The position numbers and the translations under genes were made by a program. Shown here piece after piece: positions 5,272 to 39,982 of a DNA stretch of 64,000 bases (the stretch's first letter is position 1; each line of letters starts with the position of its first letter). The notes beneath the pieces are model-generated. The model was given only the letters and a program-made list of their open reading frames with translations. It had not been told where the DNA came from and searched no databases. The stretch lies in the NCBI GenBank assembly GCA_963662285.2, contig CAXXMV010000002.1:1472001-1536000 (forward strand), written 5' to 3'. The stretch is from a bacterium (GTDB taxonomy: Bacteria; Hinthialibacterota; Hinthialibacteria; Hinthialibacterales; Hinthialibacteraceae).

Positions 5272-6011
5272 CAATGTCATTAAATTAACCGTGTTGTCCC
5301 CTCTCCCGCCGGGAGAGTATGGGTGCCAAGGGCAAGAGCGCATTGCGCTCAGCCCTTGATCAAACCACCTACGATAGGTAGAAATTCCTTAACTTAATGA
5401 AATTGTCATCATAGAATAGGGAACATCATAGAATGGGGAGCATCGGCTTCTAGCCGGTGTGTCAAATAGAATAGAATGAGCACCATGACGCATAATCATT
5501 TCCATGAAGATAGGGGGATGATGGGTGCCAAGGGCAAGAGCGCAATGCGCTCAGCCCTTGATCAAACCACCTACGATAGGTAGAAATTCCTTAACTTAAT
5601 GAAATTGTCATCATAGAATGGGGAGCATCATAGAATGGGGAGCATCGGCTTCTAGCCGGTGTGTCAAATAGAATAGAATGAGCACCATGACGCATAATCA
5701 TTTCCATGAAGATAGGGGGATGATGGGTGCCAAGGGCAAGAGCGCAATGCGCTCAGCCCTTGATCAAACCACCTACGATAGGTAGAAATTCCTTAACTTA
5801 ATGAAATTGTCATCATAGAATGGGGAGCATCATAGAATGGGGAGCATCGGCTTCTAGCCGGTGTGTCAAATAGAATAGAATGAGCACCATGACGCATAAT
5901 CATTTCCATGAAGATAGGGGGATGATGGGTGCCAAGGGCAAGAGCGCATTGCGCTCAGCCCTTGATCAAACCACCTACGATAGGTTGAATTTCCTTAACT
6001 TAATGACATTG
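5272..6011. mobile_element. IS4-like non-autonomous element (MITE) carrying a REP tandem array
   Basis: 17-bp terminal inverted repeats CAATGTCATTAAATTAA / TTAACTTAATGACATTG (1 mismatch), flanked by a 10-bp direct repeat CCTCGTCCCC (5262-5271) / CCTCGTCTCC (6012-6021). Confidence 0.6.
5321..6011. repeat. 202-bp tandem repeat (3 full units plus a partial fourth) built on a REP-like hairpin
   Basis: GGGTGCCAAGGGCAAGAGCGCAwTGCGCTCAGCCCTTGA at 5321, 5523, 5725, 5927 with near-identical intervening sequence. Confidence 0.95.
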
Positions 6012-33317: not shown

Positions 33318-33564
33318 GATTATCTCCAAAATTAATATGATTAAGGGACTATTACCAAACAAATACTGTTATCAAACAAACAACACCGATAAAAGAAAGT
33401 AAGGCGCGCTTCTCGTGACCATGTCATTAAGTTAACCTGTCTTATCCCCTCTCCCGCCGGGAGTGGGCAAAGGTGAGGAGAAAAAAGAAATCACCTAATG
33501 TAGACAGAGTGGGCTAAAAGCCATAGCGTAGCCACCAAAATTCCCAAAGCGGGCGCCAAGGGCA

Positions 33565-34184
33565 GTGCGCCTTGAAAGTTCATGGCGTCAAGTCGTCTGA
33601 AATGGCGACCACGGTAAAGCCTAACCAGCAGCCGTGTATCGAGTCTTGCGCTGTGTCTGGCAACAGCCATGGTGAAGCGTAGACAGAAAGGAAGCAGGCC
33701 GTAACGCAAGTGAAGAGATTTTAGTTCCGAAATACACGTCTTTGAAGTCGCAGACCTGTGTTGCCCTACGGGGAATGCGGAATTGGCGCTGTCGGTATGG
33801 TGAGGCGGTGACCAAGGCTTCCGGGATTTCAACTCACGGCATGTTTTCAAATGATGTCATGGGAACAAGGGAGGTCCGGTTGGTTCCGGCGGAGCCGGTA
33901 GGTTCAAACAAGCCCTAGCAAGGTGAAGATGATCTGATGACCGGTCGTAAGTCAGACCAGCTGATAATACTCTGAGTAAGGGAGAGCCTGTCACATGGGG
34001 AAGCGGCTGGCAGGAAAAGAGTCTTTTCAGGGACGCATAAGCTCCATGCAAAGGGAGGCTGCGGGCGATTCATCAAAAGGGATATCATCCTCCGGCGGTT
34101 CGGAGAGTGTATATACCTAAACCGGGAAAGAAGGAAAAACGTCCTCTAAGAGTGCCGTGCGTAGTGGACCGCGCCTTGCAGCGC
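33565..34184 (+). mobile_element. Group II intron remnant (5' ribozyme domains I-III plus an RT fragment), bacterial class E/F-like
   Basis: 5' GTGCG; GAGTCTTGCG..GAAGCGTAGACAG; GGAAC..GGGAG junction; domain III-like AAGTCAGACCAG..ACATGGGGAAG; RT1 peptide IHQKGYHPPAVRRVYIPKPGKKEKRPLxVPCVVDRALQR at 34068-34184; no domain V/VI. Confidence 0.85.
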
Positions 34185-34800
34185 CGGAAAGCGCATCCTT
34201 AGTTTTCTCGCATTAAAATTATCTGATGTCAGAAGGTATTGTGAAGATGACCGTTGGTGCATGGACAGAAGTCTCGGGCTTTTTGCAAATTTAAATGTCT
34301 TACCCAAAGTCGGATGGTTTTCGTCTTACTCAAGCCGGATTACCCGCCGGATGAATTTGTCATTTTTAAGAAGCCTTTATCAACTATGGAAGAAGCATGG
34401 ATTGTTATCGGATTAAGGGATATTGGATTAAGGGATATTGGATTATAGCGACGCGACCATTAGACATGCGAATGAATCCGATGTTGTTTTGGAATTTCTT
34501 GATTTCTACAAAGCCGGGAATCCCCCAGATTCCAATTTGAAACACTTGATATTTGATAGCAAATTTACGCCATATAAAAACTTGCGCGAATTGGATGAAA
34601 AAGGAGTGAAATTCATCACCATTCAAAGGCGGGGCAAAACGATTGCCAGCCAATTAGAAAAAATCGAAAAATCTCAATGGAAAAAAATACTGGTTATGGG
34701 ATCGGATGGTAAAGGAAGGCTCTTGAAAATTCATGAAGAAAAGTGACCATCAAAGATTATGATAAACCCATCCGATAACTGGCGATTACCGTCCATGTGA
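34181..34800 (+). pseudogene. Transposase remnant with internal deletions
   Basis: Nucleotide match to 38707-39083; peptide SFLALKLSDVRRYCEDDRWCMDRSLGLF..DYSDATIRH..LIFDSKFT..KFITIQRRG; frameshifts and stops. Confidence 0.7.
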
Positions 34801-38657: not shown

Positions 38658-39083
38658 GCGAAGCCAACGCCAAAAAAACGCCGCTGCACTGCAAGAAATT
38701 ATTGCGGCGCCGGAAAGCGCATCCTTAACTTTCCACGCGGAGAAATTTACTTCCGAATCGTCCATCGGGATTCTGTGCTTTTTGCCGATCCTCAGAACCT
38801 ATGGCATTGACAAGGTCATTTGTGATTCCCATTACCCCGAAACCAAAACCATCAATAAGTTTTCATCGATCCTTAGTTTTCTCGCATTAAAATTATCTGA
38901 TGTCAGAAGATATTGTGAAGATGACCGTTGGTGCATGGACAGAAGTCTCAGGCTTTTTGCAAATTTAAATGTCTTAACCAAAGTTGGATGGTTTTCGTCT
39001 TACTCAAGCCGGATTACCCGCCGGATGAATTGGTCATTTTTAAGAAGCCTTTATCAACTATGGAAGAAGCATGGATTGTTATC
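38658..39083 (+). pseudogene. Transposase remnant (same family as 34181-34800)
   Basis: GILCFLPILRTYGID..YPETKTI..SFLALKLSDVRRY..WFSSYS..WKKHGLLS, truncated at both ends. Confidence 0.7.
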
Positions 39084-39982
39084 CATCCAATGCCGTGACA
39101 AGATGCGGCTCCATTGCCCGACCGATTCGGGCGCCGCCATTGCAGACGTCTAGCGAGGTCTCGAAACGGGTGGGCGTTGCGCTGGCTTTTGTTGCTGCCG
39201 TTCAGGTCTTTTTTTTTTGATAGGAGATCAACTCGGATATGAATCCTTCGCCTGATGCGAATAGAGGTAATAAGGTCTGCGGCATTTTTTTAACTCCCTC
39301 ATACTCTGCAGGATTGGCCTTCCCTCCAGTATCCTAACAAAATCCCGCGAGAACCGAAAACCACGGGTGAGCTCAGGAGGTCTGAAATTAGAGATTTTAG
39401 AACCTAAGCAATAACAAGACTTAAGATTTTTACCATAGACATAAGCTTTTAGGCTGACGGCAGTCTTTATTATGATATAACGACAACTGTTTCAAAATCG
39501 GATCGTACGGTCATTTTGAGTTTTTAACGGCAATGAAAAAATTTGAATTATGATTGTTTAATTGATAACATATTCCAGCCGAGGAATCCTCTTTGGAATC
39601 CTTCATTAAAAAAACATCTCCTTTTTTCGATATATTATTGAAATACTCAATTTTGTAATCCCTACAAAAATAATAATTTACATAAATGGCTGATTTTCAT
39701 ATTAGTGGAGCATCAGTCCGATTAGCTGTAGGGATAATTTATTAATAAATCACTTATATAATAATCGATAGATTCTAGTTTATTTTTTTGAGGAATGAAA
39801 TATTATCCCTGCAATATACAATTCATCCCAACAATCTGTAAATTATCACAAATTACGCTCTAATTAAATTAAATTGGACTATCCTACATATCAAACATGA
39901 ATACAAAATGGTTGAATAAAGTGGGGCATACAGTACGCCTCGACTTTTACCCTTTGATATTTATGCAAAAGGAGATTCTTTT

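Follow-up and report, generated by a model that had tools for sequence, protein, structure and literature searches.

Group II introns appear to have used REP hairpins as homing sites in the bacterial family to which the present genome belongs. In the window, by which we mean the whole 64,000-nucleotide stretch of DNA that was analysed, a group II intron fragment directly follows the 5′ half of an intergenic REP, and we put at roughly 80% the probability that a mobile intron retrohomed into the REP and that this element is its surviving, inactive 5′ part. The remnant represents good evidence for a clade of group II introns that would home into REPs through EBS1–IBS1 pairing, and this evidence is strengthened by relatives of the fragment in other genomes. 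With less confidence, we favour a broader proposal, namely that at least two endonuclease-less intron lineages in one small phylum have specialised on the REP stem linked to Y1 transposases, with EBS1 sequences that mimic the REP 3′ arm in registers offset by 1–2 nt, and that one of these lineages gave rise to a ~700-nt ORF-less mini-intron that multiplied in REPs. A retroelement would then be using repeats derived from a DNA transposon as safe landing sites throughout the genome.

The remnant and its probable repeat target

Direct reading of the sequence places GGGCGCCAAGGGCA at positions 33551–33564 and GTGCG at 33565–33569. The preliminary description, which had put the 5′ end of an intron directly after this REP 14-mer, is therefore accurate in its positions. 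The boundary has the GUGYG form, and the homologous boundary is present in the closest relative, L099, and in other relatives. The downstream sequence matches the Rfam model RF02005 (group-II-D1D4-6, group II intron domain I) with 119.6 bits, compared with a gathering score of 49. The features of the locus are as follows.

33551–33564, + strand: 5′ half of the REP (head GGGCGCC and 5′ stem arm AAGGGCA), forming the intron 5′ exon; from repeat matches, with 298 core copies in the genome
33559–33564: IBS1, AGGGCA, the last six exon bases
33565–34183, + strand: group II intron fragment with the 5′ end GTGCG, domains I–III, the first part of domain IV and remnants of the reverse transcriptase; from RF02005 and identity to L099
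33600–33836, + strand: domain I core, RF02005 model positions 1–225 (the full model); from the Rfam match
33756–33771, + strand: EBS1 hairpin, with the assigned EBS1, TGCCCT, in the loop at 33762–33767; from the covariance-model alignment, the local fold, the comparative fold of 18 introns and the exon–loop pairing statistic
33937–34187, + strand: broken reverse-transcriptase reading frame; from comparison with the L099 protein and the ORF list
34056–34060, + strand: junction of the 234-nt internal deletion relative to L099; from alignment to L099
34195–34409, + strand: mobile-element fragment, 97.7% identical to window 38869–39083; from sequence comparison
34438–34746, + strand: short ORF with a weak match to the DDE transposase profile PF01609 (E 9e-4, below the cut-off); from the ORF list and profile search

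The closest relative that we found, L099, lies on a metagenome contig recovered by a pattern search of public contigs. The core intron pattern returned 35 metagenome contigs and, when applied to genome contigs, 6 more; a pattern taken from the lineage-specific 5′ region had no match in the metagenomes. Window positions 33565–34058 are 81% identical to L099 129–621, and positions 34058–34183 are 75% identical to L099 856–981. The intervening 234 nt of L099 (622–855), which belong to the N-terminal region of the reverse transcriptase, are missing from the window. The broken frame matches residues 1–57 of the L099 protein at 57% identity, with one TGA inside, and residues 119–162 at 80% identity, including VRRVYIPKPGKKEKRPL..DRALQ. 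The homology stops at 34183, and the fragment ends at about 34184 against insertion-sequence debris: some 11 nt separate the end of the intron homology from the 215-nt duplicate at 34195–34409, the second copy of which (38869–39083) lies inside the ORF 38782–39153, which we read, by reading alone, as a putative transposase-like gene. The internal deletion and the 3′ truncation that had been described for this copy are thus both borne out by the alignment.

No match to RF00029 was found in the window at the gathering score, and domains V and VI are absent. Because this match is lacking and the homology to L099 stops at 34183, we classify the element as a remnant and not a functional intron; in its present state it is incapable of splicing or movement. 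Its 3′ exon has been lost, so that reconstitution of the REP cannot be shown at this locus. Searches of the same genome by DNA, by RF02005 and by reverse-transcriptase protein detected no further copy of this intron type.

The L099 protein, in turn, has 492 residues and matches TIGR04416 (group II reverse transcriptase/maturase) with 323 bits, where the cut-off is 300. It contains RVT_1 and a weak maturase domain, and the domain search detected no HNH nuclease domain. It also shows an apparent N-terminal extension.

The repeat that holds the intron fragment is the most frequent short repeat of this genome. The REP 14-mer has 28 matches in the window at up to 2 mismatches, compared with 0.31 expected, and the core GGG[CT]GCCAAGGGC occurs in 298 copies in the 7.29-Mb genome, followed by A in 292 of them. 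The complete REPs are hairpins of the form GGGYGCC-AAGGGCA-loop-(T)GCCCTT-GA, and fall into two subtypes. Subtype A reads GGGYGCC-AAGGGCA-AGAGCGCATTGCGCTCA-GCCCTT-GA, with AGA after the A of AAGGGC-A in 158 copies; subtype B reads GGGYGCC-AAGGGCA-G[TC]GTxxTTTC-TGCCCTT-GA, where GTG comes after the A in 96 copies and GCG in a further 21. Hairpins of the type CAAGGGYA..TRCCCTTG number 209 in this genome (G000), where the control count is 1, and 108, 40 and 29 in the related genomes G013, G003 and G014, respectively, with controls of 5 or fewer throughout. The genome also contains six matches to the Y1 transposase profile PF01797. At three of the six loci (L122, L123 and L124, at C8:1524445, C8:130150 and C8:829561, with ORFs of 189–196 aa), heads or hairpins of the same REPs lie ~100–500 nt away on both sides. 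REPs on both flanks are the arrangement typical of a transposase with its own REPs, and these repeats therefore behave like true REPs with associated transposases.

Two further repeat arrangements were observed in the window. A tandem array at 5319–6011 consists of 3.4 copies of a 202-nt unit (98% match), with one subtype-A REP per unit. A second palindromic repeat (CCTCTCCCGCCGGGAG...) occurs at 5300, 13374, 13861, 14310, 16276, 23504 and 33448, compared with 0.02 matches expected. The last of these copies lies ~88 nt upstream of the intron-bearing REP, so that REPs and this repeat lie together in composite intergenic blocks.

Pairing between the domain I loop and the 5′ exon

The sequence TGCCCT at 33762–33767 is the exact complement of AGGGCA, and could form six Watson–Crick pairs with all of the last six exon bases. 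Both a local fold and the covariance-model alignment put it in a hairpin loop. The preliminary description had proposed this loop as EBS1, within a hairpin CTGT-gt-TGCCCT-ACGG at 33757–33771; the sequence of the hairpin is correct, and its start is at 33756. Folding of domain I, which had been suggested as a check, gave different answers depending on the method. The minimum-free-energy fold of domain I alone did not reproduce the hairpin, paired the loop region elsewhere and was no better than those of shuffled sequences (z −0.07), whereas the comparative fold supported it. For the latter, RF02005-type introns were gathered from 150 related genomes and from public contigs, and the hairpin was aligned in those 18 introns in which it could be located together with the 5′ boundary. 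In this alignment RNAalifold returned a two-part stem with compensatory changes in five of its six pairs.

The same 18 introns were used to compare each loop with its own and with foreign exons, a helix being counted when at least 5 bp formed within the enclosed loop, anchored at exon position −1. With G–U pairs allowed beside Watson–Crick pairs, 17 of the 18 introns form such a helix with their own exon, compared with 22 of 304 pairings with the exons of other introns; with Watson–Crick pairs only, the figures are 12/18 and 0/304. The aligned segments of the 18 introns were centred on the best-matching position, which biases these figures to some extent toward pairing, and the columns of the hairpin were set by the conserved flanks. 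A cruder, motif-anchored test over 47 introns of two RNA types found at least 6 Watson–Crick bp in 9/47 own pairings and in 9/2138 others. An initial, loose scan for complementarity over the whole region was too noisy, and was replaced by the motif-anchored and loop-restricted tests. The exon–loop pairs are diverse in sequence, as exemplified by UUGCUCU/AGAGCAA, AACAUGA/UCAUGUU, UUCCUUA/UAAGGAA, UGUCCC/GGGACA, GGACAC/GUGUCC and UGAGAG/CUCUCA. The pairing of L012 and L029 with their own exons requires one or two G–U pairs. Loop–exon complementarity is absent from one of the aligned introns (L072), and from L073 and L011, which lie outside the alignment.

Because the loop pairs with the 5′ exon of its own intron in 17 of 18 cases, we assign TGCCCT as EBS1, as had been proposed, and regard the REP–intron junction as an authentic insertion junction on the strength of this comparison. 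The 5′ exon of L099 is not an REP (..CCTGATTC) and its loop, at the same place, carries GAAUC; the loop therefore changes with the target. Candidate EBS2 pairings lie in one internal loop, such as CGUCU of the window with GGGCG, and the EBS2–IBS2 pairing with the REP head cannot be distinguished from controls (mean of 4.5 with own exons and 4.0 with other exons).

These results bear on the simplest alternative, that an intron fragment and half an REP are adjacent by chance and that their 6-nt complementarity is a coincidence. REPs are frequent here, and in a fragment of 600 nt one 6-mer match would not be unusual. However, random insertion at exactly this REP position and in this orientation would have a probability of about 298/(2 × 7.29 million) = 2e-5, the match sits in the one loop that co-varies with the exons across the family, and the pattern is repeated at every one of eight 5′ junctions in four genomes. 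We consider chance adjacency extremely improbable.

Intron copies in the REPs of related genomes

All eight 5′ junctions and all six 3′ junctions lie in REPs, in the window genome and in genomes of three other genera of the family. The lineage of the window is represented by three further fragments (junctions are marked by a slash). One, G014:C73, reads GGGTGCCAAGGGTA/GTGCGTC, and another, G003:C348, reads GAGTGGCAAAGGGCA/TTACGTC; both are 3′-truncated, and their outer flanks are unrelated to each other. The third, G014:C45, has kept both ends around a large internal deletion, GGGTGCCAAGGGTA/GTGCGTCTTGAAAGTTCA ... CCCGAT/AGACGCCGTCCTTTACCCTTGA, and includes a reverse-transcriptase C-terminus that is 65% identical to residues 377–492 of the L099 protein. 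All three directly follow REP heads and differ in their outer flanks. The empty REPs of G014 read CAAGGGTA-AAACGCCGTTCTTT-ACCCTTG, and are rebuilt by joining the 5′ and 3′ exons of G014:C45, the 3′ boundary of which was set by a domain VI-like fold with a bulged A and could be 4 nt further on.

Every REP-resident copy that we saw is truncated or internally deleted, and no intact copy of the window lineage was found among the 35 genomes of the phylum. Searches at the level of the order and of the phylum (the same 35 genomes) yielded no additional intron copies, and no REP-like exon was seen at any intron of other phyla or of the metagenomes. The preliminary description had looked to full-length copies in which both exons reconstitute the REP. 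Reconstitution is indeed observed, at G014:C45 and at no fewer than five loci of G013 described below, in copies that are internally deleted, none being intact.

It is against these loci that an origin of the window junction by illegitimate recombination has to be weighed, in which GTG microhomology linked a subtype-B REP to a fragment of an intron that had resided elsewhere. The sequence AAGGGCA is naturally followed by GTG in 96 of the 298 REPs, the region is a rearranged patch with insertion-sequence fragments, and the 3′ end of the fragment is clearly a product of rearrangement. Nevertheless, such an event leaves unexplained why EBS1 and the exon match exactly over 6 bp, why three additional fragments of the same lineage follow REP heads at the same position in two other genera, and how the other half of the REP came to lie at the 3′ splice site of G014:C45. 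It also leaves unexplained a sister lineage inserted 1–2 nt away with a correspondingly shifted EBS1. We therefore judge recombination very unlikely, and retain homing into the REP as the preferred reading.

The sister lineage was found in G013. It is a ~700-nt ORF-less intron derivative with domains I–III, a remnant of the reverse-transcriptase N-terminus and domain V- and VI-like hairpins, the fold of which has a z of −4.87 in L039. Its copies (L039, 1512–2211, and L062–L068) occupy at least five REP loci and are 95–100% identical to one another. All four 5′ junctions read GGGTGGCAAGGG/GAAAGCGCC, and all five 3′ junctions read ..CCGCGAC/CAAGG..TTTTC-TGCCCTTGA, with an ambiguity of 1 nt in the boundary (G/GAAAG..GAC/C). 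The 3′ junctions differ in the REP loop variant and in the outer flank; since the junctions lie mostly at contig ends, they represent five to eight loci. Empty REPs in the same genome read GGGTGGCAAGGG-CAAGGTTTTTTC-TGCCCTTGA, and the exons of the occupied sites rebuild this sequence. The EBS1 loop of the G013 intron is CCCUUG, the exact complement of CAAGGG. This fits an insertion point 1–2 nt upstream of that in the window lineage, EBS1 being offset accordingly. No reverse transcriptase related to that of L099 was detected in G013 at E 1e-10 or better; judging from the assembly, the copies appear to be non-autonomous, or their parent is unassembled. On its sequence the mini-intron looks like a non-autonomous derivative that has multiplied.

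In G003, an intron type like that of G013 has a different inverted-repeat family on its flanks (ATTGTGATGCGGG... / ...CCCGCATCACAAT; 5′ exon in L015, 3′ exon in L116). A second palindromic repeat may be an additional intron target.

The uniformity of the G013 copies raises a further alternative, in which the REP-mobilising Y1 transposase duplicated REP and intron together, the intron already lying in the REP loop, or REPs were inserted next to introns. Transposase genes flanked by these REPs are present in the window genome, and the 95–100% identity among the G013 copies could be accounted for in this way. However, the REP loops in the five G013 3′ exons differ from one another in the way that those of empty REPs do, the REP arm is matched by EBS1 in two lineages whose registers are offset, and the closest relative outside the family, L099, is matched to its own, non-REP exon. 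Copying as a unit is accordingly improbable in our view, and we return to repeated homing of the introns into REPs.

In the pathway that we infer from the anatomy of the fragment, the EBS1 assignment and the occupied REPs of the relatives, an intron ribonucleoprotein would have found its site by pairing of the domain I EBS1 loop, UGCCCU, with AGGGCA at the loop-proximal end of the REP 5′ stem arm, and the intron RNA would have reverse-spliced exactly at the boundary between stem and loop. Synthesis of cDNA was probably primed by host replication intermediates, because the closest full reverse transcriptase, the 492-aa protein of L099, has no endonuclease domain. The copy later lost the 234 nt of the reverse-transcriptase region, and rearrangement with insertion-sequence debris removed everything past reverse-transcriptase motif 2, so that domains V and VI and the REP's 3′ half are missing. 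The idea, already put forward in the preliminary description, of an intron programmed to home into a high-copy REP is favoured both by the EBS1 test and by the REP exons of the relatives. All eight 5′ junctions are on the strand of the REP head, even though AGGGCA is also available on the opposite strand of the palindromic stem. This exclusive use of one strand hints that the REP head (GGGYGSC) is perhaps recognised as well.

Relation to other introns and to REP-targeting elements

Bacterial group II introns persist through the use of harmless sites, such as terminators, attC sites and insertion sequences, and in many genomes REPs rank with the most numerous of such sites. According to work attributed to Robart et al. 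(2007) and to Leon and Roy, group IIC introns reportedly insert after intrinsic terminators, and IIC-attC introns in the attC sites of integrons. The REP introns resemble both in being endonuclease-less and in using abundant DNA stem-loops as harmless landing sites. Unlike group IIC introns, which insert a few nt downstream of a complete stem-loop, the REP-resident introns all lie inside the hairpin, at the boundary between the 5′ arm and the loop. Further differences from the IIC and IIC-attC introns are the pairing of EBS1 with the arm of the stem itself, an RNA that matches RF02005 and a reverse transcriptase of 492 aa. Matches to solved structures did not discriminate between intron classes.

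Two other systems offer parallels for multiplication. The RmInt1-type introns studied by the Toro laboratory are said to be endonuclease-less and to home into a repeated insertion sequence, and Mohr et al. (2010) reportedly described ORF-less intron derivatives in Thermosynechococcus. The REP introns would resemble RmInt1 in lacking an endonuclease and in multiplying through homing into an element with many copies in the genome, and the ~700-nt mini-intron of G013 would resemble the Thermosynechococcus derivatives as a non-autonomous, ORF-less form that multiplies. In contrast to these, the target is not an insertion sequence or a gene but a non-coding REP hairpin of ~35 nt, of which there are hundreds of copies. 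The REP introns stand apart from the known systems compared here in two respects, their insertion at the arm–loop boundary within the hairpin and an EBS1 that reproduces the sequence of the REP 3′ arm.

Group IIB introns (CL1 and bacterial class E proteins) within integron attC arrays of halophiles are described by Sonbol and Siam (2021; PMC7923331). As presented there, these introns are not of group IIC, which is probably also true of ours; like ours, they are tied to a family of repeated palindromic recombination sites and include several truncated copies; their target is attC, whereas here it is an REP linked to an REP-associated Y1 transposase. REPs are themselves established targets of mobile elements: the table and accompanying passage of Tobes and Pareja (2006; PMC1525189) list the insertion sequences ISPpu9, ISPpu10, ISPsy8, ISPa11 and IS1397, which share with the REP introns the use of REPs as specific insertion sites. 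As treated in that passage, those elements are DNA transposons with protein recognition of REPs, whereas recognition here would be through RNA–DNA base pairing. The same table associates 2 of 9 copies (22%) of a Pseudomonas putida group II intron with REPs, a weak association for which that table passage describes no pairing. Our literature search, which covered sources other than subscription papers and supplements, found no description of REP-directed retrohoming by base pairing.

If confirmed, these findings would add REPs to the classes of targets used in retrohoming, and would provide a case of one mobile-element family parasitising another. The shift of 1–2 nt in register between the two lineages would represent a natural retuning of EBS1. 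Such introns might also serve to bring targetron cargo to hundreds of neutral sites in a single step. The copy in the window is, for its part, an inert fossil.

Several other introns were encountered in the course of the searches. The window genome contains a second, apparently intact group II intron on contig C8 (~1291710–1293720; L004 3711–5716, minus strand), in which domain I matches RF02001 (57.8 bits), domain V matches RF00029 (43.4 bits) and an ORF encodes a 420-aa reverse transcriptase. It was considered as a further copy of the window type and ruled out, since it matches RF02001 and not RF02005, and it is unrelated to the window fragment. A full-length RF02005-type intron was found in L040 (G011:C93), with a 457-aa reverse transcriptase and an RF00029 domain V of 40.1 bits; its EBS1, AGAGCAA, matches the exon TTGCTCT at seven of seven positions. 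Two ORFs, putatively IS21-type transposition genes, lie immediately upstream of this intron. On two metagenome contigs, L089 (~1880–1920) and L108 (~60–105), RF02005-type introns directly follow the domain V-like sequence of another group II intron. Their EBS1 loops match these domain V-like exons over 6 bp and 5 bp, respectively, and the two arrangements may represent nested introns.
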